Source: a virus (taxonomy: Duplodnaviria > Heunggongvirae > Uroviricota > Caudoviricetes). From it: a DNA stretch of 64,000 bases. Below, one piece after another: positions 11,752-50,764 of the stretch. The translations under genes were made by a program, and so were the position numbers. The DNA lies in the IMG/VR virus record IMGVR_UViG_3300031134_000639; one strand, written 5' to 3'. The notes beneath the pieces were generated by a model. The model saw only the letters and a list, made by a program, of their open reading frames with translations, was not told the origin of the DNA and did no database searches. Positions within the stretch are counted from its first letter, which is position 1. Every line of letters starts with the position of its first letter.

Positions 11752-11778
11752 AACTCCTATTTTATCATACTTTTGAGG

Positions 11779-13127: not shown

Positions 13128-13212
13128 AGCTATATGATACCAGAAAAAGGTTACCAAAGCAAGCTAACAACTGTTAGAACACAACACTAAGCAAGCATGC
13201 TACAATAGTCAA

Positions 13213-18777: not shown

Positions 18778-19686
18778 TTATTCGTCTTCAACCATCTGGA
18801 TGATCGTAATCTTTTTCCTCTTCGGGAATGCTGGGTTGAGGTAGTGAGACCCCTTTGGCCTACCATCAGGGTATGAGGATTTGAAAGTTACCTGACGTTT
18901 GCCGACAACAGTGAACTTGCTATCCCGGTTCAGTAGCACTTCGCGTTCTGCGTGGGTGACTGAACCGGAGAAATCTTCGCTTTTGTGTACAGGTACACCA
19001 TTGCGGGAGATAATTTCGTAGACAACACTTTCTTTGTCGCTGCCGTTGAAGCACAACATGAGGTCAGGGTCTAAGCTAGTGGACATGTACGACTTGTCAG
19101 TGAACGTGTCACCGACTTCAAGTTGTTTGATATCGTCATTAAGCTGTACTGTCCTGTATAGTCTGCGGGCATTATTCTCAGGGCGTTTATATGCAGCGAA
19201 GACAGCATCCATTTCCTCAACACGGTTGATTGCCATTTTTTCGTATCTACGTTTCGCAGCGGGAACATCACCGAACATGCTAACAGGGTCATTAAAGCCA
19301 GTGTCAATATAGTTGCTAATACCTTTTTCGCCATCACGTAGGTACATGTTCAAATACTCATAGTTGTTGGAGTAGAAACGTACTGTGTCAACTAAATCTT
19401 CGCTGTAGTTGTCTTTGAAGTAGTCAGCTTCAGTGTCAAGCTGTTGAAGTTCAGGTGGCTTAACTGCGGGGTCAGCGTTGAAACCAGTGAGGACAGCCTC
19501 TTTGCTTGGGGTTGCATCAGGGAAATGAGATGCAGGTACTTTGGATATAGCTTTCGCTATTGTCCTAGCTTTAGGCTCAACTAGGAGTGGCCCGAACTTT
19601 TTCTGGAGAGAATAGTAGAAGCCATGCTTTTTACATGTGGGGCCTGTGTAACATGTTGAACCGTCAGGCATTTTTGTTGCAGTCAT
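18778..19686 (-). CDS. Mono-ADP-ribosyltransferase (R-S-E/C3-like ART domain), divergent member, 302 aa
   Basis: C-terminal YRTVQL (Arg), SYMSTSL (STS) and AEREVLLNR (ExE), same catalytic signature as the 36-49 kb array. N-terminus has C-x5-C-x2-H (TCYTGPTCKKH), similar to the array leader. Confidence 0.65.
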   Translation of the reverse strand: MTATKMPDGSTCYTGPTCKKHGFYYSLQKKFGPLLVEPKARTIAKAISKVPASHFPDATPSKEAVLTGFNADPAVKPPELQQLDTEADYFKDNYSEDLVDTVRFYSNNYEYLNMYLRDGEKGISNYIDTGFNDPVSMFGDVPAAKRRYEKMAINRVEEMDAVFAAYKRPENNARRLYRTVQLNDDIKQLEVGDTFTDKSYMSTSLDPDLMLCFNGSDKESVVYEIISRNGVPVHKSEDFSGSVTHAEREVLLNRDSKFTVVGKRQVTFKSSYPDGRPKGSHYLNPAFPKRKKITIIQMVEDE

Positions 19687-27411: not shown

Positions 27412-27414
27412 CTA

Positions 27415-27460
27415 ACGACTGAGCGCCCCACAGACAAGATTCTGTGGGGCGCTCAGTCGT
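27415..27460. terminator. Hairpin acgactgagcgccccacag-acaagatt-ctgtggggcgctcagtcgt
   Basis: 19-bp perfect inverted repeat. Confidence 0.65.
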
Positions 27461-27876
27461 TGTTGAGGGGCATCTACTGGCCGATACCAGCAGAGACATT
27501 AAAGCTAGGTCCAGACACCTGAATGTCGCTCTGAACAGTGTGATCTACAGGAGCGATTGAGAGTGTGGATGTAGCGATGAGTGTTGCAACACTGGCTTTA
27601 GTGAAGAAAGCAGCAATGATTTCCATGATTGTTTGTTGTCCTTTTCTGTGTTGTTGTTTGTGTTTGTGTGTGTACTCATATTGTACCACATAACACTGTC
27701 AAGAGGAAGAAAAACTTTTCTCAAAAACCTTGATTTTCCGGGGTTTTTGAGGGGATGGAATAAGTTTTTAGGTTTCCTACAACGTAACCTGGAAACTGTT
27801 GTTCAGACTAGTGATAACCACCAAATCTGAAACTAAATTAGAACCTAATCGTATCACATGTGAAAGTAAAAAGGAA

Positions 27877-33661: not shown

Positions 33662-33710
33662 AAACACTTTTGGCCTACAACTTGTTCACGGTTGTAGGCC
33701 AAAAGTGTTT
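33662..33710. terminator. Perfect 20-bp stem hairpin (aaacacttttggcctacaac / gttgtaggccaaaagtgttt)
   Basis: Inverted repeat. Confidence 0.7.
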
Positions 33711-33760
33711 CTACAACCGATTACATAGGTAAGGTTGCTAATCAAGCGAAGGAGCGAACC

Positions 33761-33991
33761 ATGTTGAATGAGTCACTGGAAGAAGAAGTAGACACTTTGA
33801 ACCCGCAAGACCTCGCAGATTTAGCTATCCGTATACTTGAAAAACTAGGGCATGAGTACGCTCCACTACAGCAAGTCCTTGGATTATCACACGGTCAAGC
33901 TCTGACCCCCAAAGAGGGTAATGGTTGCTCTGTCACAGCGCTCCCTGACTTAGACTGGAACCTCATAACGCTAGACCTGGACAACAACTAA
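33761..33991 (+). CDS. Small acidic hypothetical protein 76 aa
   Basis: ORF preceded by GAAGGAG. Confidence 0.4.
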   Translation: MLNESLEEEVDTLNPQDLADLAIRILEKLGHEYAPLQQVLGLSHGQALTPKEGNGCSVTALPDLDWNLITLDLDNN

Positions 33992-34008
33992 AACGTTAGA
34001 CATATACC

Positions 34009-34752
34009 ATGTGTAGAAATAGACCCGGCCCACGCTGTACTGACCATTCCCTTCAGAGCATGAACCGTGCCAGTAGCAAACTTGCGCGCATAAAAGAAGA
34101 AGCAATGAAGCTCATTGAGCGTTTTAACACAGCAAAGCCTGGCTCAAAGACAGCAGAGAACCTGAAAGCTCGTATTGAAGCTAAACAGGATGAGCGCAGA
34201 CAGGCAGCACGAAAGTTTGAAGAAGAGAAGCTTGACTACCAGGCAACACCAGGTGGGCAGGAAGAGCTACGCGCAAAAATTAGTGATGAAGAAACAGACC
34301 CTGAAGAAGCTGAACGTCTGAAAGTTGATTTAGCCGCAGCTGAAGCACGTAGACAATGGCAGAATGACATGAACAAGAAAATTTGTCGTGCCATCCAAGA
34401 AGGCGGTGTCATTAGTGCTGTGCTCATGGTTGAAACAGAACGCCACCTACAGCATGAGCGTCTAGCTGAGATACAAGCTAAACTAATTGAAGCTCAGAAA
34501 GAGAAAGAGCACAACGAAAAAGAGTATAAGACTCCGTTGGGACGCCAGCCTTCAAACGCTATGAGACTGCGACGTAATATTAACCGTGCTCAAAAAACCA
34601 TATACTTCTTCCGTAAGCAGGAGCTACTTATCTCTCTGATGCGTGGAGACTTAGACAGTTACCTTAAACGCCAGATGAAGAGAAAGACTACTAACATGAG
34701 CCGAAAAGCGTTCATGGGTGGAGTCAATGTAGCTACTAAGCTCATCCGCTAA
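34009..34752 (+). CDS. Coiled-coil protein with the N-terminal Cys/Arg leader (MCRNRPGPRCTDH), 247 aa
   Basis: Leader motif plus long K/E/R-rich helical region; no ART domain. Confidence 0.5.
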   Translation: MCRNRPGPRCTDHSLQSMNRASSKLARIKEEAMKLIERFNTAKPGSKTAENLKARIEAKQDERRQAARKFEEEKLDYQATPGGQEELRAKISDEETDPEEAERLKVDLAAAEARRQWQNDMNKKICRAIQEGGVISAVLMVETERHLQHERLAEIQAKLIEAQKEKEHNEKEYKTPLGRQPSNAMRLRRNINRAQKTIYFFRKQELLISLMRGDLDSYLKRQMKRKTTNMSRKAFMGGVNVATKLIR

Positions 34753-34765
34753 CTATCCGATATAG

Positions 34766-35902
34766 TTGCTAAACCAGAAGCCATTATCAGCTGGGCAAGC
34801 TCGTGTTGACACAATAGAACACGTATGCTATTATTGTGATATTAGGTTTTATTATGAAAGTAGGCACAATTTGAGTGAAAAAGATTTAGCTGCTAAGCAG
34901 CGCGGAACCATCCTTGGTCTTGCCTACGGTGACGCCTGGGGATGGATTACTGAGTTCGCTAACTACAAGGAAACTCAGCGCGTTCGACCTGCCTTCCCAG
35001 CTGAAGCTATCGTCACTGACGACACTCAAATGTCCCTCTACGCGATGAACGCCATCCTTAATGATGTGTACCTGCGTAGCTCCAAGATTAAAGCTTTCGA
35101 CGCTGACCGCAGCGAAGCAAATGGTAACGCTGTGCGAATTGAGTTCGCTGAAGCGTTTATCAACTGGTACTACGACGAGGACAACACTCGCGCTCCTGGA
35201 GTGACCTGCATGGAGGCTCTGAAGAAGATTACGCTTCTTGACCTTGAGACTGGCCTTGAGGGAACCAACGAGTGGTCTAAGGGCTGCGGTGCTAACATGC
35301 GTAACCCATGGTTCGGCCTGCTTCCCTACGATGTTGACATGATTGCTGAGTTGAGCGTTATTCAGTCTTCAGTCACCCACAATAACCCTCTGGCTCTTTC
35401 TTCCTCAGCTATCACAGCGTTGGTCGTTCGCGGCCTTGTCAGCGGTGAGGTTACTCCCGGAGACAACAACGTTATGAACTACGCTATTGATATGACTGAG
35501 TACCTGATTCAGAATCCTTTTGATACACTCAACCTTGGTTACATGGATGGTCTGCTTCAGCTTAAAGAGTTCCTTATCGTCCAGAGGGATCTGACTCACG
35601 TACTTGATGACCTCGATGAGTCAACTGATATCTGTCACCTGTTCGGTGAAGGCAAGATTGCTGAGGAAGCACTCGCCCTCGCTATTGTTGCTGTTGACCG
35701 CTACCAGGATGATGTTATGAGCGGATACCGTCGTCTGGTTCACTCCTCAGGAGACACTGACAGTATCGCAGCTATCGCAGGTTCCTTCTTTGGCGCAGCG
35801 TACGGAGATAGTGTGTTCCCCACCGAATGGTTTGACCGTCTAGAGCCTCGCTACCAGAAAGAGCTATCCCTCGTTATCGGGGATGTGCAGGACCTGATCT
35901 AG
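34766..35902 (+). CDS. ADP-ribosylglycohydrolase (ARH/DraG-family); start uncertain (TTG at 34766 or TTG near 34873 preceded by GAAAGTAGG)
   Basis: ILGLAYGDAWGWITEF near the N-terminus, TDDTQMSLY, and C-terminal SGDTDSIAAIAGSFFGAAYG, all typical ARH metal-binding motifs. Confidence 0.7.
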   Translation: MLNQKPLSAGQARVDTIEHVCYYCDIRFYYESRHNLSEKDLAAKQRGTILGLAYGDAWGWITEFANYKETQRVRPAFPAEAIVTDDTQMSLYAMNAILNDVYLRSSKIKAFDADRSEANGNAVRIEFAEAFINWYYDEDNTRAPGVTCMEALKKITLLDLETGLEGTNEWSKGCGANMRNPWFGLLPYDVDMIAELSVIQSSVTHNNPLALSSSAITALVVRGLVSGEVTPGDNNVMNYAIDMTEYLIQNPFDTLNLGYMDGLLQLKEFLIVQRDLTHVLDDLDESTDICHLFGEGKIAEEALALAIVAVDRYQDDVMSGYRRLVHSSGDTDSIAAIAGSFFGAAYGDSVFPTEWFDRLEPRYQKELSLVIGDVQDLI

Positions 35903-35910
35903 TAGATACG

Positions 35911-35958
35911 TGCAAGTAGGGAGGCCACAACAGTAGTGTTGTGGCCTCCCTACTTGCA
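35911..35958. terminator. Perfect 21-bp stem hairpin (tgcaagtagggaggccacaac / gttgtggcctccctacttgca)
   Basis: Inverted repeat directly upstream of the CCGATAGTAAT motif. Confidence 0.7.
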
Positions 35959-35960
35959 TA

Positions 35961-35974
35961 AAACCGATAGTAAT
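35961..35974 (+). promoter_or_regulatory. AAACCGATAGTAAT motif, 33 nt upstream of the first ART gene
   Basis: Recurring motif; see 25897, 39736, 45152, 61746. Confidence 0.5.
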
Positions 35975-36003
35975 TTACTGTAAGTAAAAGTTAGGGTTCC
36001 TTA

Positions 36004-36969
36004 ATGTGTCGTACTAAGAAGTCGGGTGGGCGTAGATGCCCTCAACACACGGATCCTGTAAAACATGCCGCATATAATGCTCGTAGGCGAGAACTGTACG
36101 CCGAAAAGAAAGACTCTACAAAAGTTGAGTCTGAAGAATCAATAGTTATAGTAGACCATGATGATTCCGTAGACTATGGCTTCCTCCCATTAGACAAACC
36201 TCGTAAACCGTATAAGTTCTCCTCCAAGCTCGGTAAAACCTTTGCCAAAGATGCTAATGAGTTTGCTAAAGCAATTCAACCTGACTTTGATGTCGAACGT
36301 TGGAGACTCAGAAACATCTACCACGAAAACATTGCAACAGATGACCCAATCTACAATGAAGGTAGATTCGCTTTCCTTGAGTACACAGCGTCCAATTACG
36401 CTCTCATTGGTGTACGTTTGAACGGTAGAAACTTGAGTTCAAAAAGACATGACAATTTCAAGTTGACTAAAGACCAAGAAAATGAGCTTGACCGTAAGAT
36501 TGAGACACTTGATGAGCTTTTTACTAGAATAAGGCAGCCTTCGGAACCACGAACGCTGTATCGTGGCATGCAAGTGCCTGACACCGTAGAGCAAGAGAAC
36601 GTTGACAGCTGGCTAGAGAGTAAGTTCCCTGTAGGTGGTATTGTCTCGCAGAAGAATTATATGTCAACAAGTTTGAACCCTAAGATAGCAGCAGGTTTTT
36701 CCTACAGTGACCATAGTGACCCAAGAAAAGTAGCTCGTGCAGTCATTTTTGAGATAAGAACAACTGAGGGTGCTCCTCTGGGCCATGGAACATCCTCCTA
36801 CAAAGATATTGAAGCGGAAGTCCTCCTTCCACGCGACTTAAAACTGAAAGTTGTCAAACGAGAGACAAGAGCCTCACACACCATTGGATCTTTTTTGAAC
36901 CGAAAAAACCAAGTCAGCATCTCTACAGTAATTCAGTTAGTTGACGTAACAAATGAAGGAAAAATTTAA
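36004..36969 (+). CDS. ADP-ribosyltransferase paralog 1 (leader + variable region + R-S-E ART domain), 321 aa
   Basis: MCRTKKSGGRRCPQHTDPVKHAAYNARRRELYA; LYRGMQVP; YMSTSL; EAEVLLPRD; C-terminal VIQLVDVTNEG. Confidence 0.75.
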   Translation: MCRTKKSGGRRCPQHTDPVKHAAYNARRRELYAEKKDSTKVESEESIVIVDHDDSVDYGFLPLDKPRKPYKFSSKLGKTFAKDANEFAKAIQPDFDVERWRLRNIYHENIATDDPIYNEGRFAFLEYTASNYALIGVRLNGRNLSSKRHDNFKLTKDQENELDRKIETLDELFTRIRQPSEPRTLYRGMQVPDTVEQENVDSWLESKFPVGGIVSQKNYMSTSLNPKIAAGFSYSDHSDPRKVARAVIFEIRTTEGAPLGHGTSSYKDIEAEVLLPRDLKLKVVKRETRASHTIGSFLNRKNQVSISTVIQLVDVTNEGKI

Positions 36970-37856
36970 TGTGCCGCAGCAAAGAATTAGGCGGCAGGCG
37001 CTGTCCATCTCATACAGACCCAGCAAAACAGTCAGTCTATAATGCTCGCCGCCGCGAACTATATGCACAGCGTAAGCAGGCCCACAACATATCGTTTTTG
37101 AATTACAACACCGCCAAGCCATGGCTAAACGAAGACGATGATGCATACAAAACGTTTGTAGAAGAGGCTGATGCGTTTGCACGCAAGGTGAATCCCAACA
37201 TTAATACAACTCAATGGGATGATGATGAAATGATTTATATGGAACCAGTAACTGACGAGCAGGATGCTCTTATTCAATACAGCGGCGATGGCTATGAAAA
37301 TATCAATCAGTACCTTCGTGCCGGACAACCTAAAACTGATGTAGAACAAACTTTCAAGGTCAAGTTTGACGAATATCGCTCTGCGGCAGAAAACGCCAAT
37401 TTAGTAAAAAATATTGATTCAGCGTTGCTCAAAGCAATACCATCAGAAAAACCACGAGTACTTTATCGCTCTATTCGTGTGCCTCGCGGTGTACCATCTA
37501 GCCAGGCCTCACAATGGCTTAGAGAAAACTTCTCAGTAGGATCTGTCGTCAGCAACCCTGGTTACATGTCAGTTTCTTTGAACGCAGGGCTAGCCAACAG
37601 TATCTTTGGTGAAAGTAGTACGCAACAAACGGCAATCACCATGGAAATCTTAAGTAAAAAAGGCGCTCCGCTTGGAGCAGGCATGTCCAAAACAGCTTAC
37701 AGCGAAACTGAACTTCTTTTACCGCGTGACGTTAAACTAAAAGTGGTCTCTTTAGAAGAAGACGTAGATTACACAGTGATGTTCCGAAACAAAGAGAAAA
37801 CAACCAAACGCACTGTTATACGTCTCATAGACGAAAATGATGAAGGAGAAAACTGA
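36969..37856 (+). CDS. ADP-ribosyltransferase paralog 2, 295 aa
   Basis: MCRSKELGGRRCPSHTDP...; LYRSIRVP; YMSVSL; ETELLLPRD; start overlaps upstream stop (TAATG). Confidence 0.7.
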   Translation: MCRSKELGGRRCPSHTDPAKQSVYNARRRELYAQRKQAHNISFLNYNTAKPWLNEDDDAYKTFVEEADAFARKVNPNINTTQWDDDEMIYMEPVTDEQDALIQYSGDGYENINQYLRAGQPKTDVEQTFKVKFDEYRSAAENANLVKNIDSALLKAIPSEKPRVLYRSIRVPRGVPSSQASQWLRENFSVGSVVSNPGYMSVSLNAGLANSIFGESSTQQTAITMEILSKKGAPLGAGMSKTAYSETELLLPRDVKLKVVSLEEDVDYTVMFRNKEKTTKRTVIRLIDENDEGEN

Positions 37857-38731
37857 TGTGCAGACCCAAAGAGAATGGTGGGAGACGCTGTCCTCAACAC
37901 ACTGACCCTGTAAAACACGCCGCATATAACGCACGTCGTAGAGAACTGTACGCTGCTTCCAAAAAAGCGGACTCATCTTCTGCTCTGACTAGTCTTTTCC
38001 CTGAGATGGGTGTTCCCATACAACCACTAAATGAAAACGTACGTCTTGCGTTCATTGCTGATGCTCGTAAGCTGACTAAAGCGCTCCTGCCGGATTTTGA
38101 TGAAAACACCTGGGCGCTTACAGAGAGTGTTATAACCTCAGACCATCCTAAATATGCTAACCCTGCTAGCCATGAAAGCTTGCGTTACTATACAGATATT
38201 GGCTACACTCATCTTAGAGCTAATCTAGAAGGCAGAGGTTATGCTGCTCCTGAAACACTTGAATGGGAACATCGTGTCATAGACTCTATTGACAAAGCTT
38301 TCGAACAGGCATCCCCACCTGATGAGCCTCGCCTACTATATCGTGGTATGAGAATTCCTAGTGAACATGAGCCTGACCAGTTCATTAATGAGAACTTCCC
38401 TGTTGGAGGTGTTGTCAGCCAGAAGTCTTATATGTCAACAAGTCTGCTACCTTCGGTATCTAAGTCATTCGGGGATGGATTTGGGCACGGTGAAGAGCGA
38501 ATTGCTAGGTCAGTAGTTTTCCAGATTGTTAGCAAACAGGGTATAGCTCTGGGAAAAGGAACCTCCGAAATGTCGGACAGGGAAAAGGAAGTTCTGATGC
38601 CTCGTAATGCGAGATTCAAAGTAGTTAGCGTAGATAAAGGCGTTGACTTCAGCTATACTCCGTTTGGTTACCCTAATGAGAAACTGAAGCGCACGTTAAT
38701 TCGTTTGGTTGATGCGTCAGACGAAGAATAG
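37856..38731 (+). CDS. ADP-ribosyltransferase paralog 3, 291 aa
   Basis: MCRPKENGGRRCPQHTDP...; LYRGMRIP; YMSTSL; EKEVLMPRN; TGATG overlap. Confidence 0.75.
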   Translation: MCRPKENGGRRCPQHTDPVKHAAYNARRRELYAASKKADSSSALTSLFPEMGVPIQPLNENVRLAFIADARKLTKALLPDFDENTWALTESVITSDHPKYANPASHESLRYYTDIGYTHLRANLEGRGYAAPETLEWEHRVIDSIDKAFEQASPPDEPRLLYRGMRIPSEHEPDQFINENFPVGGVVSQKSYMSTSLLPSVSKSFGDGFGHGEERIARSVVFQIVSKQGIALGKGTSEMSDREKEVLMPRNARFKVVSVDKGVDFSYTPFGYPNEKLKRTLIRLVDASDEE

Positions 38732-38760
38732 ACTAAGTTCACTCCTATCAGGTTTAAGAC

Positions 38761-38782
38761 AAAACCGATAGATATGAGTAAT
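38761..38782 (+). promoter_or_regulatory. Variant motif AAAACCGATAGATATGAGTAAT (CCGATAG...TAAT with 7-nt insertion)
   Basis: Upstream of ART paralog 4. Confidence 0.35.
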
Positions 38783-38807
38783 ACGTTGTGTGACAAGAAA
38801 GAACTTC

Positions 38808-39698
38808 ATGTGTAGACCTAAAGAGTTGGGCGGCAGACGCTGTCCTCAGCATACCGACCCAGTAAAACACGAAGCTTACAACGCCCGTCGCCGCGAACTA
38901 TACGCAGAATCCAAAAAAGTAAGCTCTTCATCTAACCCACTTGACCTCTTCCCTAAAATGGGTGCTGTCATAGGAGCCTTAGACGAAAGTGTGCGTCTAA
39001 CTTTTTTATCTGATGCCCGTAAGTTGACCAAATCACTGATGCCAGATTTTGATGAAGAGCAGTGGAAGGACACAGAAGACGTTATTAGTCCAAGTAACCC
39101 AAAATATATCAACCCCACAAATCATGACGCTCTAAGATACTACACAGAACTAGGCTTCATCACTCTCAGAAATCATTTAGAGCAAAATGATGAGGCTCCT
39201 ACTGAAAATAAAGACTGGCATGACCGCGTTGTATCAGCAATAGACAGCGCTTTTGAACAAGCGGACCCACCAGAAGAACCTCGCCTGCTTTATCGTGGTA
39301 TGAGAATCAGACAAAACCATGCAGACAAGGATAGCATCAGCAAATACGTTGCTGACAACTTCCCTGTGGGAGGAGTAATCAGTCAGAAAAACTACATGTC
39401 AACAAGTTTAAGCCCTTCAGTTTCAACTTCATTTGGTGATGGTTTTGGTGGCACTCCAGAAGAGCGTGACTCCAGGTCTGTACTCTTTCAGATTGTCAGC
39501 AAGCAGGGTATTGCTTTAGGTAAAGGAACCTCTGACATGGGCGACAGAGAGAAAGAAGTCCTGATGCCGCGCAACGCTCGTTTTAAAGTTGTTAGTGTAG
39601 ATGAAGGAGCAGATTTCAACTACAATATTTACGGTGACACACCTGTTGAGCTTAAGCGTACTATAATTCGTTTGGTTGATGTGTCGGACGAAGACTGA
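38808..39698 (+). CDS. ADP-ribosyltransferase paralog 4, ~296 aa
   Basis: Start chosen at MCRPKELGGRRCPQHTDP to match paralogs (the ORF track begins 6 codons earlier). LYRGMRIR; YMSTSL; EKEVLMPRN; close paralog of gene 3. Confidence 0.75.
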   Translation: MCRPKELGGRRCPQHTDPVKHEAYNARRRELYAESKKVSSSSNPLDLFPKMGAVIGALDESVRLTFLSDARKLTKSLMPDFDEEQWKDTEDVISPSNPKYINPTNHDALRYYTELGFITLRNHLEQNDEAPTENKDWHDRVVSAIDSAFEQADPPEEPRLLYRGMRIRQNHADKDSISKYVADNFPVGGVISQKNYMSTSLSPSVSTSFGDGFGGTPEERDSRSVLFQIVSKQGIALGKGTSDMGDREKEVLMPRNARFKVVSVDEGADFNYNIYGDTPVELKRTIIRLVDVSDED

Positions 39699-39735
39699 TA
39701 ATAGGTCCAGATAAACCGGTGTCCCCTTAAGATAG

Positions 39736-39750
39736 AAAACCGATAGTAAT
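39736..39750 (+). promoter_or_regulatory. AAAACCGATAGTAAT motif, 34 nt upstream of ART paralog 5
   Basis: Recurring motif. Confidence 0.5.
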
Positions 39751-39779
39751 AATTGGAGTAAACATCTTTTGGAGATAGC

Positions 39780-40634
39780 ATGTGCCGTAGCAAGGAGTTG
39801 GGTGGGCGTCGTTGCCCTCAATACACCGACCCTGCAAAGCGTGCCGCATATAATGCTCGTCGTAGAGAACTATACGCTAACCGGAAAAAAGGTCAGCAAG
39901 TAGACTATATCCCTCTAGACCAGCCTAGACACAAGTTCCATGAAAGCGACTCACCTGAGTGGCAGCGTTATAAGAAGGAAGCTAAAGCCTTCAAAGAAAA
40001 ACTTTCTGCTTTAGAGGGCTGGAAGACCTATAAGAAGAGGTTGCACGATTACACAGACTTTGAGTACATCAACATACGTATCTTCCTAAATGGCTATGAC
40101 GCCACCGACATTAAAGCTAGCCCTATGTCATATGACCAAAAAGAGCAGAAAACGATTGCTAAGAGCATCAAGGTTTTAGATGAGGTTCTAACTCTTGCTG
40201 ATAAACCAGATGAGCCTAGACTTCTCTACCGTGCGATGATGGTTCCTTTTAGCATCAAAGACAAGCAGATGGAAGGTTGGATGAGAGAGAACTTCCCAGT
40301 CGGTGGTGTTGTAAGTCAACTGTCTTATATGTCCACCTCTCATGACCCACACAGGCTAATCAATAACTTCGGTGGAGTACGTAACCAGCATAGAGCTATC
40401 ATGTTTGAGATAATTAGCAAACAAGGAGCCGTATTAGGCAACGGAACATCCGAGTATGGTTCTTTAGAATCAGAAGTGCTTATGCCTAGGGAGGCTAAGT
40501 TCAAAATAGTTTCAGTTGATGAAAACGTAGACTATCAAGTATTTGCTCAAGACGAGAACAACGGTGAAGGATCCATGAGTAGTGTCAAAAGAACAGTCAT
40601 CCGCCTAATGGACGTAGACGGGGAGGATAGCTAA
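39780..40634 (+). CDS. ADP-ribosyltransferase paralog 5, 284 aa
   Basis: MCRSKELGGRRCPQYTDP; LYRAMMVP; YMSTSH; ESEVLMPRE. Confidence 0.7.
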   Translation: MCRSKELGGRRCPQYTDPAKRAAYNARRRELYANRKKGQQVDYIPLDQPRHKFHESDSPEWQRYKKEAKAFKEKLSALEGWKTYKKRLHDYTDFEYINIRIFLNGYDATDIKASPMSYDQKEQKTIAKSIKVLDEVLTLADKPDEPRLLYRAMMVPFSIKDKQMEGWMRENFPVGGVVSQLSYMSTSHDPHRLINNFGGVRNQHRAIMFEIISKQGAVLGNGTSEYGSLESEVLMPREAKFKIVSVDENVDYQVFAQDENNGEGSMSSVKRTVIRLMDVDGEDS

Positions 40635-41584
40635 TGTGTCGTACTAAAGAATTGGGTGGGCGTCGTTGCCCTCAGCACACTGACCCTGTGAAACATGCTG
40701 CGTACAATGCACGTCGTAGAGAGCTATATGCAGCTCAAAAAAGCATTATCAAAAATGATGACCAAGCTTCTTTAGAGTCTCGTTTCCTTGGGCCTGACCA
40801 GAGAAGAAAACCGGCTGGTGAGCAAGAACATCTTAGCTTTGTAAAAGATACAGAAACGTACCGCGATAGTTTGGCAGAGTACGAGAAGACCACCTACTCC
40901 AACGACTATGCTGAGTGGAGAGCCAGCCCAAAGAAAACTGACCAGTGGGGTGGCTCACCTCGTGCTGCCCTCAGACACTATACGGAGATGGGCTACAGTG
41001 ATGTACGCAACTACCTGAACGGTTTCAGCATGGAAGTGTACCGTGACGAAGACGAAGCGCAGAAAGCTGGTGTGGAAGTGAAACCGCAGGACAACGCTGA
41101 CATGGCAGGCTTTGTTCGCATGATGGACAAAGTAATTTCTCTTGCCCCCAAACCTGCGGAACCACGCATGCTGTACCGTGGAATTGACCCACCTTCTACC
41201 GCTATGGGTAAAGAGGCTGAATGGCTTAAAGAGAAGTTCCCCATTGGAGGAATAGTAAGCCAGAAATCCTACATGTCTACAAGCTTAGAACCCTCTATAG
41301 CTGCTGGAAGCTTTAGCCTCACAGAGAACTCTGTTGTTATGGAAATTCTTTCTAAAGAAGGTGCAGCCCTTGGTGTAGGCCAGTCAACATGGGGTCTTCA
41401 GGAAAGTGAGGTCGTCTTACCACGCGATGCCAAACTTAAAGTTGTCGCAGTGTACCAGGACGTAAAATACGGTTACACTAAAGTCACAAGAGAAATGGAC
41501 GGCGAAGTTCTAGCAGAAAAAGATGCTGAAGACAAAAGAACAATCATCCAGGTAATCCATGTTACAGATGAGGATGAAAGCTAA
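40634..41584 (+). CDS. ADP-ribosyltransferase paralog 6, 316 aa
   Basis: MCRTKELGGRRCPQHTDP; LYRGIDPP; YMSTSL; ESEVVLPRD; TAATG overlap. Confidence 0.75.
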   Translation: MCRTKELGGRRCPQHTDPVKHAAYNARRRELYAAQKSIIKNDDQASLESRFLGPDQRRKPAGEQEHLSFVKDTETYRDSLAEYEKTTYSNDYAEWRASPKKTDQWGGSPRAALRHYTEMGYSDVRNYLNGFSMEVYRDEDEAQKAGVEVKPQDNADMAGFVRMMDKVISLAPKPAEPRMLYRGIDPPSTAMGKEAEWLKEKFPIGGIVSQKSYMSTSLEPSIAAGSFSLTENSVVMEILSKEGAALGVGQSTWGLQESEVVLPRDAKLKVVAVYQDVKYGYTKVTREMDGEVLAEKDAEDKRTIIQVIHVTDEDES

Positions 41585-42450
41585 TGTGCCGCCCTAAAGA
41601 ATTGGGCGGGCGTCGTTGCCCTCGACACACTGACCCTGTAAAGCATGCTGCATATAACGCCCGCCGCAGAGAGCTATATGCAGCATCCAAAAATACAAGT
41701 TCTCTGCCTAGCCCGGTTGAGCTTTCTTCTGCCACACAGTATGAACATTTGTTTGTACTTGAGGATAAAAACACGGTTGAAACAATTGAAAAAACGTTCA
41801 AAGGAAGACTTGGATACATAGCGGAAGGTAACGCTCTATATGATGCTCTACAGGAGCAGGATGACTCTGAGAAACTAAGAAAATCTTTGCTTTACTACAC
41901 ATCTCACGGTTATACAGACTTGCGTAAATACTTGAATGCTTCCTCTGAAGACAAAGAAGACTTTGACGATGAAGCTATGGACGACTTAGTTAATGATTTA
42001 GACAAATCAATCAGCTTAGCTGAGACCAAAAGAGAATATAGAGCAGTCTATCGTGGAATCAGAGTCGACGAAACAGTAACTGGCGAGAAAAGCTTTGACG
42101 TGTGGCTGCATGAGGCATTCCCTATTGACGGTGTAGTATCGCAGAAAAGCTATATGTCAACAAGTTTGTCTCCTGCTAAAGCAATAAACATATTCGGCTT
42201 TGGTTCTGTCACAGAGTCACTACTTTTTGAGATAGTCACAAAAAGAGGGGCCGCTTTAAATGAGAAGACCTCTGTTATGGGTACAAAAGAGTATGAGATT
42301 TTGCTACCAAGGGAAGCTAAATTTAGGGTCGTGAATGTTCAAAAAGATATTACTCTAAAACTGCATTCTTCTCCTGGCGATAACGCTTTAGTTCACCCAA
42401 TTCAAAAGACTGTTGTCCAGCTAATTGATGTAACTGATGAGGAAAGCTGA
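41584..42450 (+). CDS. ADP-ribosyltransferase paralog 7, 288 aa
   Basis: MCRPKELGGRRCPRHTDP; VYRGIRVD; YMSTSL; EYEILLPRE. Confidence 0.75.
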   Translation: MCRPKELGGRRCPRHTDPVKHAAYNARRRELYAASKNTSSLPSPVELSSATQYEHLFVLEDKNTVETIEKTFKGRLGYIAEGNALYDALQEQDDSEKLRKSLLYYTSHGYTDLRKYLNASSEDKEDFDDEAMDDLVNDLDKSISLAETKREYRAVYRGIRVDETVTGEKSFDVWLHEAFPIDGVVSQKSYMSTSLSPAKAINIFGFGSVTESLLFEIVTKRGAALNEKTSVMGTKEYEILLPREAKFRVVNVQKDITLKLHSSPGDNALVHPIQKTVVQLIDVTDEES

Positions 42451-43283
42451 TGTGTCGCACTAAAGAACTTGGTGGGCGTCGTTGCCCGTCACACAGCAAC
42501 CCTCAGCTTGTCGCTGCTCGTAATGCCCAGAGACGACAGAAGTATGCAGCCAGTAAGAAATCAGCTGTTGCGCCTGCCCAACAGTATTCGTTTCAAGTGG
42601 ACGAAGACGAACTAGTTACTTCTGTAGACATGTCAGGAGATGTGTGGGACTCATACATCTCTGATGGCGAAAAGTTTCTTACCAAAATCCAGGAGAGTGA
42701 ACAAAAAGTTGAGATGATAGATGCTCTGCTTGAATACACTCACAAAGGCTACCGCCCTCTTAGGGATCATCTAAATAGGTCTGAAGAAGAGCAGGCAGGT
42801 AACGAGTACATGGTTGGGTTAACAAAAAACTTGGATGACGCTTTACATTTAGCTGAGCCACCAAGTGAGCCAAGGACGTTGTTCAGGGGGATGGAAATAC
42901 CAACAGATGAGGTGACTGATGATGAAATAGATGGCTGGTTGGACTCGCATTTTCCTGTAGACGGAGTCTTCTCCCAGAAGAGCTTCATGTCAACAACCTT
43001 GTCAATGTACAAAGCCGCTTACGTTTTTGGTAACGCTCGGGGTCCTAAAAGATCAGTCATCTTTGAGATCATTAGTAAGCAAGGTGCACCACTTGGAACA
43101 GGAACATCCGATTTAGATACAAAAGAGTTAGAGATTCTGATGCCACGTGAAGCCCGCTTCAAAGTGGTTGGCATAAAGAAGAACATTACTTTTGACCTTG
43201 CTGCTTCCTCTCACCCTGATGCATTTCCTGATGAAATAACTAGAACTATCATCCAAATTGTCGACGCTGAAGAAAAGAGCTAA
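42450..43283 (+). CDS. ADP-ribosyltransferase paralog 8, 277 aa
   Basis: MCRTKELGGRRCPSHSNP; LFRGMEIP; FMSTTL; ELEILMPRE. Confidence 0.7.
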   Translation: MCRTKELGGRRCPSHSNPQLVAARNAQRRQKYAASKKSAVAPAQQYSFQVDEDELVTSVDMSGDVWDSYISDGEKFLTKIQESEQKVEMIDALLEYTHKGYRPLRDHLNRSEEEQAGNEYMVGLTKNLDDALHLAEPPSEPRTLFRGMEIPTDEVTDDEIDGWLDSHFPVDGVFSQKSFMSTTLSMYKAAYVFGNARGPKRSVIFEIISKQGAPLGTGTSDLDTKELEILMPREARFKVVGIKKNITFDLAASSHPDAFPDEITRTIIQIVDAEEKS

Positions 43284-43285
43284 CC

Positions 43286-44203
43286 ATGTGTAGAACCGGT
43301 GGAAGACGATGCCCATCCCACAGCGACCCCACAATGGTTGCAGCACGTAATGCCCGCAGGCGAGAGCAGTACTCAAACAGAAATCAAGGGTACAGCACCA
43401 TGGTCGATGAAGAGAACCCTGTAGCTGGTATGTTGAACCATGCCAGTATGGGTTTGTACGGCAAAAAGTCAGCTGGTTTTACACCTTTAGATGAAGGATA
43501 CGAACCCTTTGATGAGTACAGTGAAGACTGGGAAGAATACAAGGAAGACGCTAAACTGTTCCTTAGGACACTACGAGGAGAGTACGGCAAAAAGTTTTAT
43601 GACCTGCAAACGTCTTTGTACAGTTACACTGCCGGTGACTACAACGACGTGCGTGACTACTTAAATGGCTACAGAATAAGAGCCACCTCTAAAGAAGAGA
43701 TGGAAAAACCTTTTGAGAAGAGAACCATAAAGATGGTTAAACGTATCATCTCTGACTTAGACGGTGCTCTCAAGCTAACTACCCCACCAGCATCACCTCG
43801 CAAAGTCTATCGTGGAATGCAGGTGCCTGTACGAGTTCCAGCTGAAGACGCTGCCACCTGGGTTGCAGAGAATTTCACTCCAGGGAAAGTTGTCTCCCAG
43901 AAGTCCTACATGTCAACAACTTTGAACCCTGCTAAAGCAAACTTCTTCTCAGGAACAAAAAATGGAGTCATTTTTGAAATCCTAACTAAAGAAGGCGCTG
44001 TTTTAGGTCAGGGAACATCACAGTACAACGAGATGGAAACAGAAGTCCTGATGCCTCGTGAAGCTAAATTCAAAGTAGTCAGTGTAACAGTTGATGCAGA
44101 AGTCAAACTGAAGCCATCTAAAGGCTATAACAGTCTAAATGGAGTGCAAACAACTAAGAAAACAATCATCCGTATGGTGGATGCAGGAGAGGAAAACAAC
44201 TGA
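43286..44203 (+). CDS. ADP-ribosyltransferase paralog 9 (short-leader subtype MCRTGGRRCPSH), 305 aa
   Basis: VYRGMQVP; YMSTTL; ETEVLMPRE. Confidence 0.75.
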   Translation: MCRTGGRRCPSHSDPTMVAARNARRREQYSNRNQGYSTMVDEENPVAGMLNHASMGLYGKKSAGFTPLDEGYEPFDEYSEDWEEYKEDAKLFLRTLRGEYGKKFYDLQTSLYSYTAGDYNDVRDYLNGYRIRATSKEEMEKPFEKRTIKMVKRIISDLDGALKLTTPPASPRKVYRGMQVPVRVPAEDAATWVAENFTPGKVVSQKSYMSTTLNPAKANFFSGTKNGVIFEILTKEGAVLGQGTSQYNEMETEVLMPREAKFKVVSVTVDAEVKLKPSKGYNSLNGVQTTKKTIIRMVDAGEENN

Positions 44204-45135
44204 TGTGTAGAACAGGTGGAAGACGGTGCCCGTCACACAGCAACCCGGAGGCTGTAAGTGCCCGTAACGCCCGTCGTAGGGCTGCCTACGGCTCCAAGAA
44301 AGCTTCAAGCTCCACGGAGACGCCAACTGGCTCTGAGGGCGTTAGAATCGCTTCTGAGCTTCTGAAGAAGAACGCTTGGATGTTTGATGACTACTCACAG
44401 GTAAAGTATCGCTTCGATGACAGCCACGATAACTGGAGTCAATACCTTGAAGATGCAGATGAGTTCTATGAGATCTTGAAATCTAAGGCACCTGAAGGCG
44501 AATCCTCACCACACATTAGAGTGCTCAAAAACTACTACACTGGTGAAGGCTACCGTGGTATTCGTGATTACTTAAACGATTATGACGTTGCGAACGGCAA
44601 GCCGCGAGAGTTTGACCCTAAGTATGAGGAAGAAGACCGAGCAGCTGAGAAAGAAGAGATGGATGAGATTATACCGCTTCTAGATGAAGCAATTAGTCTA
44701 GCTCCAAAAAGTGAGTTCCGTCGTCAACTGTACCGTGGCATGAATTTGCCTTCAAACATAAAAAGTGAAGATGTTAGCAGTTGGATTCATGAGAACTTCC
44801 CTGTTGGTGGTGTTGTAAGTCAGAAATCGTACATGTCAACATCATTGAGTGCTGACAGGGCTGTGCTTAACTTCACTAACCGCTGGCCGCGTATGCATGA
44901 CCGGACAGTTGTCTTTGAGATCATCTCCAACGAAGGTGCAGTCTTGGGAGATGAAACTGCTTTACATGGTTCAAAGGAAGCAGAGGTGCTTATGCCTCGC
45001 AACAAGAAGTTCAGGGTCCTGTCAATTGATGAGAACGTGACATACACAACATCTGGCTTTTCTGAAGGTTTCTCCGATGCTCCAGAGGACACAAGCCCAA
45101 CACAAAAAACTGTTATCCGAATGATTGATGCTTAA
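44203..45135 (+). CDS. ADP-ribosyltransferase paralog 10 (short-leader subtype), 310 aa
   Basis: MCRTGGRRCPSHSNP; LYRGMNLP; YMSTSL; EAEVLMPRN; TGATG overlap. Confidence 0.75.
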   Translation: MCRTGGRRCPSHSNPEAVSARNARRRAAYGSKKASSSTETPTGSEGVRIASELLKKNAWMFDDYSQVKYRFDDSHDNWSQYLEDADEFYEILKSKAPEGESSPHIRVLKNYYTGEGYRGIRDYLNDYDVANGKPREFDPKYEEEDRAAEKEEMDEIIPLLDEAISLAPKSEFRRQLYRGMNLPSNIKSEDVSSWIHENFPVGGVVSQKSYMSTSLSADRAVLNFTNRWPRMHDRTVVFEIISNEGAVLGDETALHGSKEAEVLMPRNKKFRVLSIDENVTYTTSGFSEGFSDAPEDTSPTQKTVIRMIDA

Positions 45136-45151
45136 TTTGGATGGGCAGTAG

Positions 45152-45164
45152 CCCCGATAGTAAT
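45152..45164 (+). promoter_or_regulatory. CCCCGATAGTAAT motif, 31 nt upstream of ART paralog 11
   Basis: Recurring motif. Confidence 0.5.
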
Positions 45165-45190
45165 AACTGGAATTAGACTTTGGAGTTAAC

Positions 45191-46054
45191 ATGTGCCGTA
45201 CTGCTGGAAGACGCTGCCCGTCTTATACCGACCCTAAGCTTATAGCAGAACGCAATGCTCGTCGCAGGGCCGCATACAAAGTATCGCACAAAACCAAAGC
45301 TGAACCTAAAAGGCTTGACCCGACAACGTTGTTTAAACCTTTTGACGTTTACCGTGAAGAAATAATTCCGGAAACACCCGAATACAGAGAGTACATTCAA
45401 GCCGGAAAGGACTTCTCAAACAGCATCACTCCGCAGGAGTCAGACGCTGTATACGGCTATACTGACATGGACTACAGCATAATCCGAGACTACCTTAATG
45501 GGTACGAAATGGAGTCATCAACAGTCGTGCCTTTAACTCTTCAGGAATCACGTCAACAGGAAGTTGACAACACTATCGAAACAATAGACTCAGCCTTGAA
45601 GAAAGCCGATCCACCAGCGTCTCCTAGGACTCTTTACAGAGGCATGATGATACCCATGAAAGTAAAACCAGCAGACATGAAAGCATGGGTTGAAGATAAT
45701 TTCCCTATTGGCGGTGTGATAAGCCAAAAAAGTTATATGTCAACAAGTTTAAGCACGCAGAAAGCACTTGGCTTCGCTGGTTCATATGATGCTTCCCCTA
45801 GAAGTGTTCTACTAGAAATTGTTTCTTCTTCCGGCGCTGTACTCAACAGCCAGACTTCTTCATACGGCGAGATGGAGAGAGAGGTCTTGCTTCCCAGAGG
45901 TAAACGATTCCAGGTTGTGTCAGTAACCACTGATGCAGAGATTAACTATAAGATGTATGCGCACAAAAAGCACTACGAACGAACAACAACTGGAATAAAA
46001 ATTATTCAGCTGATTGATTTGGATGAACTAGAGGGAGATTCTGCTGAAGCATAA
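45191..46054 (+). CDS. ADP-ribosyltransferase paralog 11 (short-leader subtype), 287 aa
   Basis: MCRTAGRRCPSYTDP; LYRGMMIP; YMSTSL; EREVLLPRG. Confidence 0.75.
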   Translation: MCRTAGRRCPSYTDPKLIAERNARRRAAYKVSHKTKAEPKRLDPTTLFKPFDVYREEIIPETPEYREYIQAGKDFSNSITPQESDAVYGYTDMDYSIIRDYLNGYEMESSTVVPLTLQESRQQEVDNTIETIDSALKKADPPASPRTLYRGMMIPMKVKPADMKAWVEDNFPIGGVISQKSYMSTSLSTQKALGFAGSYDASPRSVLLEIVSSSGAVLNSQTSSYGEMEREVLLPRGKRFQVVSVTTDAEINYKMYAHKKHYERTTTGIKIIQLIDLDELEGDSAEA

Positions 46055-46083
46055 GTTCCGTAGAAAATAGTCTTGCAGATGCA

Positions 46084-46137
46084 GAATAAGTTATAGGCCC
46101 CAACTAAAAAATTCTAGTTGGGGCCTATAACTTATTC
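46084..46137. terminator. Perfect 23-bp stem hairpin (gaataagttataggccccaacta / tagttggggcctataacttattc)
   Basis: Longest palindrome in the window; separates the ART operon from the convergent minus-strand small gene. Confidence 0.75.
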
Positions 46138-46344
46138 TTTCAAGCTTTTAAGATACTTGTCTCCAAGCACCCAAGGACAGTTTGTGCTGTGGCAGTCGTA
46201 ACTTTCGTCACAGTAGCCATACCGGCCTTCTTTGCCGCTTCCGCCGCAAAAAACGCAACCGCCCATTTCATCCTGGTTGATTACTTCACCGACTAAGCCG
46301 TTAAGCAGGTCAATGAGTTCCTTCTTTTCTTTCTTGTTTAACAT
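46132..46344 (-). CDS. Small Cys-rich protein (putative zinc-binding), 70 aa
   Basis: GGCVFCGGSGKEGRYGYCDESYDCHSTNCPW, 7 Cys plus His in 30 residues. Confidence 0.4.
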   Translation of the reverse strand: MLNKKEKKELIDLLNGLVGEVINQDEMGGCVFCGGSGKEGRYGYCDESYDCHSTNCPWVLGDKYLKSLKE

Positions 46345-46457
46345 ATGTTCTCCTTTTTCTCTATTAATTCGTACAAGAGTTTATCTAGAGTGAGTCTCAT
46401 ATGTTGTGTTGCTTGACATCAGTTTAGCACACATAGAACATTGTTGCAACCACAAAT

Positions 46458-46498
46458 AAATGAGGCCCCAACATTCTCTGTCAGGGCCTCATTTATTC
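46458..46498. terminator. Hairpin aaataaatgaggccc-...-gggcctcatttatt
   Basis: Inverted repeat. Confidence 0.55.
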
Positions 46499-46505
46499 GC
46501 TTAGT

Positions 46506-46787
46506 CTATGTGACTGAGCTTTCGTCTTCTTCATCAATTGTTTTCAAACCTGGTTCTGGATCTACTTTGTCTTCATGTGGGGCAGGTTGTTCTAAGGTGA
46601 ACTCATCACCGTCACTAACAAAGTAGTCGCTTCGGTCGTTTTCCTTTTCGGTGGCTGCACCAAGGTCAACTTCGTTTGCGCTGTCTGCTGTTGTGTCTGT
46701 TTCTAGTACTGTGTTTGTCATAATATTTTCCTCCAAAAATGTTGACGTACTCTCCTTATATCTGCAAAACACCCAACTGTGGTACAA
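46506..46787 (-). CDS. Small highly acidic hypothetical protein 93 aa
   Basis: ORF; D/E-rich. Confidence 0.35.
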   Translation of the reverse strand: MYHSWVFCRYKESTSTFLEENIMTNTVLETDTTADSANEVDLGAATEKENDRSDYFVSDGDEFTLEQPAPHEDKVDPEPGLKTIDEEDESSVT

Positions 46788-46895
46788 AAGTTTACTGATA
46801 TAGCTGGGAAACAGTCCCCTCAGACTGGCGCTATAAGCCTAGAAAAACCTGGTCAAACCGATATACATGGTACAATAAACAGACACAAATAACCT

Positions 46896-48311: not shown

Positions 48312-48323
48312 TAGACATATTCT

Positions 48324-49181
48324 ATGTGTAGAACCGGTGGTAGACGTTGTCCAGCTTACAGTGACCCTCAGGCTATAGCCGACCGTAATGCAAGACGCAG
48401 AAAAGCTTATGCTGCTAAGAAAAGTGTTGTTCAGCCTCCACTGGAGATGGCCTTTCCTAGCCTAAGTGAAGTACGTAAAGTTGTTGGTTCTGAAGACCGC
48501 GAGTTGCGTGGTAAGAAGCTTGAAGAAGAACTTACTAGCTCTGAAGTAGAAGCAGTCGGGTACTACACAGAATCAGGTTACATAACTGTGCGAAATGAGT
48601 TAGTGGACTGGGAGTTAATCCAGGATTTGCAAGATAATGAAGACGTAGAAGAGCCTGATGAGGACATAAACGTTATCATAGACCATCTAGATAATGTGAT
48701 AGCTAAAGCCATCCCACCCCAAAATCCTGTGCCATTATATCGTGGAATTAATGTACCTATCTCAGTGCATTTAGACGAAGTTGATAATTGGGTTGATGCG
48801 AAATTCCCTATTGGTGGAATAATTCAGCAGGATAACTTCATGTCAACTTCATCAGCGCCGCAAACTGCGGTAGGCTTCAGTCAGCCAATAGATTCTATGT
48901 TTGGCAACTACGAAGATGAAAACGAAATGCGAGACATAATGTCTCAAGAACGCAGCATTGTTATGGAAATTTTAAGTAAAAAAGGTGCTGTTATCCTACC
49001 TTCTTTAGCTGGTGGAAGTTACGATGAGCAGGAAACCTTGCTGCCAAGAAATGCACGACTCAAAATTGTTGGTGTGCACAAGAAACAATCTTATTCATAT
49101 ATGACAAGATTCAGGCCCATCGACCCAGAAATAGCCATGGTTGTAAACCGTACTGTAATACAGGTAGTTGACGCAGACTAG
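48324..49181 (+). CDS. ADP-ribosyltransferase paralog 12 (short-leader subtype), 285 aa
   Basis: MCRTGGRRCPAYSDP; LYRGINVP; FMSTSS; EQETLLPRN; RTVIQVVDAD. Confidence 0.7.
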   Translation: MCRTGGRRCPAYSDPQAIADRNARRRKAYAAKKSVVQPPLEMAFPSLSEVRKVVGSEDRELRGKKLEEELTSSEVEAVGYYTESGYITVRNELVDWELIQDLQDNEDVEEPDEDINVIIDHLDNVIAKAIPPQNPVPLYRGINVPISVHLDEVDNWVDAKFPIGGIIQQDNFMSTSSAPQTAVGFSQPIDSMFGNYEDENEMRDIMSQERSIVMEILSKKGAVILPSLAGGSYDEQETLLPRNARLKIVGVHKKQSYSYMTRFRPIDPEIAMVVNRTVIQVVDAD

Positions 49182-49234
49182 TGAGCAGTTTCTGTGGTAT
49201 CATAAGAGTATGAGTCCATCAGGAAGAAGATACG

Positions 49235-49879: not shown

Positions 49880-49903
49880 TCTGCCCTCACCGATATCACT
49901 AGC

Positions 49904-50710: not shown

Positions 50711-50759
50711 GGCATAAAGAAACCCTCCCATAGAGTTCATGGGAGGGTTTCTTTATGCC
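50711..50759. terminator. Perfect long palindrome ggcataaagaaaccctcccat-agagttc-atgggagggtttctttatgcc
   Basis: 21-bp stems between convergent genes. Confidence 0.75.
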
Positions 50760-50764
50760 TTAAA

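Follow-up and report, generated by a model that had tools for sequence, protein, structure and literature searches.

A single ADP-ribosylglycohydrolase (ARH) gene lies at the head of a tandem array of ADP-ribosyltransferase (ART) genes in a 64,000-nucleotide stretch of viral DNA (Caudoviricetes; IMG/VR record IMGVR_UViG_3300031134_000639), which we analysed as a whole and refer to as the window. We give about an even chance to the reading that this ARH is an enzymatic antidote, or eraser, that acts at the level of the reaction product and serves many ART writers. According to this proposal, the ARH (34871-35902) would act in trans on whatever the R-S-ExE ARTs of the same element have modified, with ADP-ribosyl-arginine on proteins as its most likely target. 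An enzyme that takes off the mark would not have to bind to any one transferase, so that a single ARH could cope with an open-ended repertoire of diverged ARTs (13 in the window, from 1 to at least 18 in relatives). During synthesis or action of the ARTs, it would clear ADP-ribose from phage proteins and from host machinery that is still needed. It would be transcribed separately and, by virtue of its own sigma-70-like promoter of the host type, would probably be present before or independently of the ARTs, which lie behind the putatively phage-specific motif CCGATAGTAAT. A ratio of one eraser to 11-13 or more diversified writers would be plausible only for an antidote that acts on the product. 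We observed the family and fold of the ARH, intact active-site motifs in the ARH and in the ARTs, the gene order, and a linkage of both gene types across lineages; this linkage, being recurrent, tight and on the same strand, matches the known logic of enzymatic immunity. The genes in question are the following.

34871..35902, plus strand: coding sequence of the ARH, 343 amino acids, stop codon included in the span; the mechanical open reading frame opens at 34766.
36004..46054, plus strand: 11 paralogous tandem R-S-ExE ART genes, all of which keep the R, STS and ExE catalytic motifs; starts at 36004, 36969, 37856, 38808, 39780, 40634, 41584, 42450, 43286, 44203 and 45191.
48324..49181, plus strand: 12th ART gene, with the same N-terminal module, located after a RadA-like gene (46896-48311).
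18778..19686, minus strand: 13th ART gene, with a different N-terminal Cys module (DGSTCYTGPTCKKH).

Taken alone, the window ARH is an unremarkable representative of a well-known superfamily. The original prediction had recognized an ARH/DraG-family hydrolase by two motifs, and we read both of them, LAYGDAWGW and SSGDTDSIAAIAGSFFG, in the open reading frame 34766-35902 on the plus strand. This frame matches the Pfam family PF03747 (ADP_ribosyl_GH; E=3.7e-43, score 148.7 bits, cutoff 26.2) over profile positions 1-286 of 287; the curated gathering score is exceeded across the whole domain, as expected for the ARH superfamily. It also matches PHROG 22100 and 6572, and the fold comparison returned the all-alpha fold of the DraG/ARH superfamily. 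The frame opens with a TTG at 34766, merely 14 nt past the preceding stop, and the next in-frame start is the TTG at 34871, preceded by an AGTAGG ribosome-binding site 6 nt 5' of it. The resulting form of 343 amino acids has the length of the 98%-identical homologue P0001 and of most gene calls in other assemblies, and moves the onset of the PF03747 domain from residue 47 to residue 12. Based on the ribosome-binding site, the homologue length and the domain onset, the true start is most likely the TTG at 34871. We rejected the TTG at 34766, which has no ribosome-binding site and would overlap promoter-like elements, and whose unconserved 35-amino-acid extension is absent from homologues.

We retrieved 330 homologues of the ARH, of which the nearest cellular ones are actinobacterial ARHs. 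Among the phages of INPHARED, tblastn with the ARH matched solely actinophage ARHs at 26-33% identity, and megablast with 34000-38000 found no match, so that no cultured relative is available. With such nearest homologues among cells and phages, an actinobacterium is the probable host.

Is the enzyme likely to be active? In an alignment of 39 ARH homologues (29-52% identity), D21 (in GDAWG), E28, D50-D51-T52 (in TDDTQM), S136-K137-G138, H170 (in the TH motif) and D295, D297 and S298 (in GDTDS) are invariant. The metal ligands, which the original prediction had left to a careful alignment, are thus all conserved. In a pairwise alignment to DraG, whose catalytic residues are listed in PMC8120803, the invariant residues fall on GDALG..VEF, VTDDTEMS and GDADT, i.e. 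on the binuclear metal site, and the window ARH carries its complete signature (a Glu after GDA.G, T-D-D and D-x-D-[ST]). By this comparison, the protein looks catalytically competent and metal-dependent, and we predict it to be a hydrolase. Filing it as DraG or as Tri1 was rejected, since both equivalog scores in NCBIfam are far under the cutoff: 59.2 bits against 337 for TIGR02662 (DraG), and 38.6 bits against 490 for NF041672 (Tri1), where only the C-terminal 33 residues match. A DraT or nif context was not found in the window, and the ARH has no Tri1-like N-terminal occluding extension, as its domain begins at residue 12 of 343.

The ARTs follow the ARH on the same strand, in agreement with the original prediction: the ARH stop and the start of the first ART are 101 nt apart, the R-S-ExE motifs are intact in all ARTs, and the first ART gene (36004-36969) lies wholly inside the interval 34766-36969 singled out at first. 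In total, the window contains 13 ART genes. ART1 matches the PHROG family 'Alt-like' with E=5.5e-13. The proteins are built from an N-terminal module, a disordered linker with a hypervariable helical region, and a catalytic core, and the mean identity between paralogues is 70% in the N-module, 17% in the middle region and 38% in the core. The N-module (consensus MCR..GGRRCP.H..P...YNARRRELYA, or M-C-R-x3-6-G-G-R-R-C-P-x-H/Y...N-A-R-R-R) starts at residue 1 of 12 window ARTs and occupies the first ~40 codons, e.g. 36004-36120 and 48324-48443. A profile search with it gave 184 clusters (at 50% identity), and in almost all among the 150 listed the module stands at the extreme N-terminus. The 87 new clusters include 66 ARTs (64 ADPrib_exo_Tox, 2 ART-PolyVal) and 1 Zeta toxin. 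The module may be an address or targeting tag. Divergent copies also head a protein similar to PolyA_pol and CCA-adding enzymes (25939-26058) and the 247-amino-acid protein encoded 5' of the ARH (34009-34128). A second Cys module (..DG..C-x6-C-x2-H.., e.g. MTATKMPDGSTCYTGPTCKKH) heads the 13th ART (18778-19686, minus strand) and, in the relatives L008 and L092, further ARTs, an RNase T-like exonuclease, an HNH protein and others; its C-x6-C-x2-H spacing is common to the short MCR variant.

The size of the array is apparently not fixed. Compared with the window at 37031-37839, the relatives L095 and L096 lack exactly one ART unit. The junction falls in a 77-bp stretch common to the 5' ends of ART2 and ART3, which indicates that the array expands and contracts by unequal crossing-over through the coding sequence of the N-module.

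Is the linkage of ARH and ART genes a common arrangement? Over 15.8 kb (34203-50000), the window matches the 624,949-bp contig L099 (ENA ERZ27247443 k141_624373) with 100% identity, and the same element was also assembled at 163, 511, 663 and ~885 kb. We regard it as a candidate phage genome of more than 600 kb, the sizes being taken as assembled, with concatemers or misassembly possible. No virion gene was identified in the window, so that the label 'phage' rests on gene content and on the IMG/VR relatives; tRNA genes were not found in the window either. The conserved gene order is Band_7 - NT5C - 76 aa - 247 aa - ARH - [ARTs] - RadA - [ART] - NERD - ... - ThyX, and the number of ARTs between ARH and RadA is 11 in the window, L099 and L101, 10 in L095, L096 and L097, 1 in L001 and 0 in L006. 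More distant relatives show the same neighbourhood in other forms: 247 aa - ARH - small gene - at least 3 ARTs in L088, ARH - two genes - 3 ARTs in L092 (a 727-kb contig with 36% GC), and 3 ARTs - ARH in L008 (IMG/VR UViG_3300045988_179014, 345 kb). In L107/L105 (JGI Ga0540662_0000379, a 68.7-kb contig), 18 or more tandem ARTs of ~395 amino acids with the same N-module come after the ARH, at ~17.5-42.3 kb; Arr-like and cREC proteins are encoded upstream.

In the six divergent lineages whose context is readable, the ARH adjoins ART arrays of 1, 3, 3, 3 or more, 11 and at least 18 genes, and the linkage recurs where the ARHs share only 38-55% identity. The same-strand neighbourhood was also found at 14 of 80 IMG/VR ARH loci, where an ART-domain reading frame ends 0.35-1.3 kb upstream of the ARH; together with the six lineages, they show a linkage conserved across lineages as in Imm-ARG modules. 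Elsewhere in the 1.3 Mb of IMG/VR ARH flanks, ART matches were limited to MuF-ART genes in L028 and L030, both among the same 14 loci. L028 (a 58-kb contig, and the only such locus annotated in detail) encodes a MuF-ART fusion and a 1692-amino-acid protein with a C-terminal ART domain upstream of the ARH. Since the ARH-next-to-ART layout recurs both in divergent relatives and in medium-sized actinophages, the pairing is unlikely to be accidental. A metagenome scan with the ART profile gave 7 loci only, and the protein-cluster route gave more. In L008, NAPRTase, a nicotinamidase-like isochorismatase and a Nudix-NrtR regulator follow the ART-ARH cluster within 6 kb (11.4-17.4 kb), and this neighbourhood is a cluster for NAD/ADP-ribose recycling, sensing and economy. 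The contig L102 (JGI Ga0540631_0000122, 118.6 kb), which comes from the sample of the element's 163-kb contig, has 7 N-module ARTs at its very start; this array may belong to the same genome as the window element, whose ART count would then be ~20. At 12330-14822 of L001, the RadA-like gene encodes 830 amino acids with Hom_end/LAGLIDADG matches, compared to 471 amino acids in the window, which suggests an intein insertion.

The junction and its surroundings contain the following elements, all on the plus strand.

33717..33726, plus strand: CCGATTACAT, a promoter-like variant after a hairpin (33662-33710) and 44 nt before the 76-amino-acid gene, in a layout like that of the CCGATAGTAAT sites.
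33761..33991, plus strand: 76-amino-acid gene, the first of the ARH unit, conserved 5' of the 247-amino-acid gene and the ARH in relatives.
34009..34752, plus strand: gene of the 247-amino-acid protein, whose N-terminus is a divergent copy of the ARTs' Cys module (MCRNRPGPRCTDHS).
34757..34762, plus strand: CCGATA core of the phage promoter-like motif, 5 nt past the stop of the 247-amino-acid gene.
34806..34834, plus strand: sigma-70-like promoter, TTGACA-17-TATTAT with TG, 11 of 12 positions matching, 37 nt before the ARH start codon.
35911..35958, plus strand: perfect hairpin with arms 35911-35932 and 35937-35958, 22 bp, 100% complementary, with a 4-nt loop and no T-run.
35964..35974, plus strand: CCGATAGTAAT promoter-like motif, 30 nt before the ATG of the first ART (36004).
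46083..46138, plus strand: 27-bp hairpin with a T-rich tail, by consensus the terminator that ends the ART array.

The element at 34806..34834 is the top sigma-70-type match in 33.6-46.5 kb, and the window holds 4 such matches of at least 11 of 12 positions against 0.67 expected. Exact copies of the 11-mer CCGATAGTAAT occur five times in the window (25898, 35964, 39740, 45154, 61747), only on the plus strand and 9-41 nt before gene starts (37-41 nt at four of the five sites); by our own estimate, the chance expectation is ~0.03 per 64 kb. When up to 2 mismatches were allowed, 13 matches were found against 9.5 expected. Variants of the CCGATA type lie at 24820, 25140, 29044, 33717, 34757, 38765, 46858 and 49890, again only on the plus strand. 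Sites of both kinds stand mostly ~37-44 nt before starts, including those of ART1, ART4, ART5, ART11, RadA and the CCA-adding enzyme; three of them lie inside the ART array (38765, 39740, 45154). CCGATAG likewise follows the ARH in L001 and L088. We consider the motif a probable phage-specific promoter class, and its variant at 33717..33726 would mark the start of the putative transcription unit that ends in the ARH.

The original prediction had the ARH separated from the array by a 21-bp-stem hairpin and CCGATAGTAAT. Both elements are present, but the perfect stem is 22 bp long and the hairpin is not specific to the junction. As RNA, it is predicted to fold into a stem of 23 bp with -46.1 kcal/mol (z=-11.6 relative to shuffled sequences), and a hairpin also follows the ARH in L001. 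About 20 perfect or near-perfect intergenic hairpins of 17-27 bp, many of them without a T-run, follow most genes or operons of the window. In view of these similar hairpins, we rejected a special regulatory role at the ARH/ART junction and interpret the hairpin as a putative terminator-like, generic boundary that sets off the ARH unit from the array. Across the window such hairpins form an unusually uniform terminator-like punctuation (examples are 4044-4090, 9423-9471, 11037-11091, 27414-27461, 46083-46138 and 50707-50763).

By consensus, the units would be 76 aa - 247 aa - ARH up to the hairpin, followed by ART1-3, ART4, ART5-10 and ART11, the last ending at 46083-46138. The ARH would hence not share an operon with the ARTs, but close a three-gene unit of its own; it is probably insulated from them and probably has its own promoter for the host RNA polymerase. 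The divergent relative L107 is arranged alike: TTGACA-17-TATACT precedes the ARH, a hairpin terminator with a T-run follows it, and a different repeated motif stands before each ART. The 247-amino-acid gene is a conserved partner directly 5' of the ARH in L001, L006, L007, L088 and L095-L101; outside its N-terminal module, the protein has no family match in Pfam, PHROG, NCBIfam or PADLOC, and the 76-amino-acid gene (33761..33991) has none in Pfam or PHROG.

Several observations weigh against a product-level antidote. First, neither sequence nor fold comparison separates arginine from serine specificity: in phmmer, the ARH matches DraG (E=9e-9) before ARH1 (2e-5) and ARH3 (3e-4), and the best-match order differs from that of the fold comparison; arginine is the presumed linkage of its substrate. 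Second, the promoter and terminator assignments are consensus matches only. Third, the association is incomplete on both sides. In L006, the ARH is directly followed by RadA and keeps its catalytic residues, and no ART of this family is found on the 193-kb contig; in L003, L004 and L005, the catalytic residues are likewise intact and no ART lies within 10 kb; and at 66 of the 80 IMG/VR ARH loci no ART was detected within 10 kb. Conversely, the ART cluster of L104 has no ARH within ~8-10 kb, and that of L102 has none in the 10 kb downstream, its upstream side ending with the contig. Together with the ratio of 1 ARH to 11-13 ARTs, the ARH-only loci (L006, L003) and the ART clusters with no ARH in view (L104, L102) depart from the strict mutual pairing described for Imm-ARG. 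Based on the conservation of an apparently intact ARH in relatives without a nearby ART, the enzyme would not be simply an obligate antidote. Of the writer/eraser module in the original prediction, the adjacency stands, but the ARH is apparently not cotranscribed with the ARTs and is also conserved without them.

Could the ARH serve counter-defence, independently of the ARTs? An early ARH might strip ADP-ribose that host enzymes attach to macromolecules of the phage or of the host, or might destroy ADP-ribose-derived immune signals, and the ART array might have expanded in a permissive spot between ARH and RadA. We consider this unlikely, although it survives better than the other alternatives. 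The ARH-only loci just described speak in its favour, as does the ART number between ARH and RadA, which varies (0, 1, 10 or 11) while the ARH is fixed. The consensus host-type promoter before the ARH in both the window and L107 suggests immediate-early expression, and the nearest cellular relatives belong to the actinobacteria, a phylum for which ARG-centred conflict systems have been described by Iyer et al. (PMC9503650). However, adjacency to ARTs within ~0.1-2 kb has recurred independently in at least six divergent lineages as well as in medium-sized actinophages, which chance insertion does not predict. PADLOC matched none of the ARH, ART1, the 247-amino-acid protein, NERD, Band_7 and the 13th ART, and no other defence-related match was found; on this result we rejected the region as a known defence system. 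Moreover, we know of no bacterial defence that acts through arginine ADP-ribosylation of proteins. Counter-defence and an antidote role are not mutually exclusive.

A second alternative, which we regard as improbable, reverses the order of events: the ARTs would be delivered or act first, e.g. packaged and injected like T4 Alt, so as to shut off host functions, and a newly made ARH would then clear the marks from machinery required later by the phage, in a regulatory cycle similar to that of DraT/DraG rather than for self-protection. The host-type ARH promoter and the strong hairpin that insulates the ARH from the ARTs would allow for such a temporal switch, and the conserved N-terminal tag of the ARTs, set apart by a disordered linker, is found almost only on ART and toxin domains. 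Packaging is implied for the ARH-linked ARTs of L028, which include a fusion to a MuF head protein, and Iyer et al. argued that phage ARTs are often packaged in the head (PMC9503650). In the window, however, no virion gene, MuF domain or protease site ties the ARTs to a capsid, and they stand among genes of DNA metabolism and not of morphogenesis. In addition, the CCGAT-type motif common to the ARH and ART units argues for overlapping rather than sequential expression.

Finally, a protein of ARH fold that occludes the ARTs or has lost catalysis is very unlikely: the ARH does adjoin the ARTs, and Tri1 combines occlusion with hydrolysis (PMC8120803), but the metal-binding and TH-motif positions are invariant in the 39 homologues, a Tri1-like N-terminal extension is missing, and one inhibitor for 13 ARTs with an average identity of ~38% in the core and 17% in the middle region is implausible. 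Among the roles originally offered for the ARH (immunity, timing, anti-defence), the evidence favours immunity, i.e. an eraser, with the other two less probable.

Coupling of an ART to an ARH is already known from bacteria, in toxin/immunity and in regulatory pairs, and was predicted for a few phages. Imm-ARG occurs strictly together with R-S-E ART toxins, whose modification it was predicted to undo (Zhang et al. 2012, PMC3482391), Tri1 reverses Tre1 (PMC8120803), and ART-ARG pairs were predicted in Aeromonas phages (Iyer et al. 2022, PMC9503650), with ARG reported in ~5% of jumbo phages and sporadically in actinobacterial phages (PMC9503650). At the fold level, the window ARH and ARTs resemble the Tre1/Tri1 and Lmo0066/Lmo0067 pairs. 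As in Tre1-Tri1 of the Serratia proteamaculans type VI secretion system (PDB 6DRE/6DRH), an R-S-E ART stands beside a DraG-like ARH that would act as an enzymatic antidote on the product, which is an arginine adduct in that system. Unlike Tri1, the window ARH has no occluding extension, faces 11-13 ARTs instead of one, lies in a viral setting with no secretion-system context, and belongs to a type that also occurs without ARTs. The Lmo0066-Lmo0067 'ART-ARH type toxin effector-immunity pair' of Listeria monocytogenes (PDB 8ZA7), for which a literature search found no description, shows marginal sequence similarity (E=0.005 with the ART profile) and is a single bacterial pair, in contrast to a viral multi-ART array. 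With the Imm-ARG and ART-ARG pairs, the window shares an intact-looking ARG adjacent to ARTs of the R-S-E clade. These are described as pairs, whereas a single ARG that heads 3 to at least 18 N-tagged, diversified ARTs was not found in PMC3482391 or PMC9503650.

DraT-DraG, which acts on dinitrogenase reductase, has the same ARH fold and metal ligands (GDA.G...EF, TDDT and GD.D aligned) and the logic of an arginine writer and eraser, but the window has no nitrogenase or DraT context and its writers are C3/VIP2-like ARTs. T4 offers a parallel on the writer side: its Alt, ModA and ModB are several R-S-E ARTs in one phage that serve host takeover, acting on the host RNA polymerase and other proteins. 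T4 carries three ARTs and, to our knowledge, no ARH-fold eraser, whereas the window has 13 ARTs and an eraser. A literature search for tandem ART arrays in jumbo or huge phages found no description. What is new here is the one-to-many architecture, in which an ARH heads very large ART arrays and which recurs in huge phage-like genomes.

Multigene families abound in this genome beyond the ARTs. At 310-13157, mostly on the minus strand, the window encodes ~10 paralogues of ~200 amino acids (22-54% identity, no Pfam match), and further sets of paralogues lie at 4102/4692, 51716/52753 and 57991/58921/59807.

In summary, we found an ARH with an apparently intact active site that is linked to the largest viral ART arrays we could find, in genomes assembled at 0.5-0.9 Mb. 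We tentatively propose, with less than even confidence, that one product-directed eraser lets a phage-like element of more than 600 kb evolve and recombine an open-ended arsenal of arginine-directed ARTs (13 in the window, 7 or more others on a further contig from 3300055081, one of the samples in which the element occurs, and 18 or more in a relative), each with the shared N-terminal address tag and its own hypervariable region for target recognition. Such an element would parallel, among viruses, the polymorphic toxin systems: a universal enzymatic immunity gene would head the array and, through a host-type promoter, be expressed before the writers. Action of the ARH on all ART products would account for a virus with a dozen or more writers that are potentially toxic to itself, and ARH-sensitive ADP-ribosyl-proteomes would provide a handle for the targets of the ARTs. 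If the ARH works independently of the ARTs, it would add a new type to the early anti-defence enzymes of actinobacteria-associated phages.

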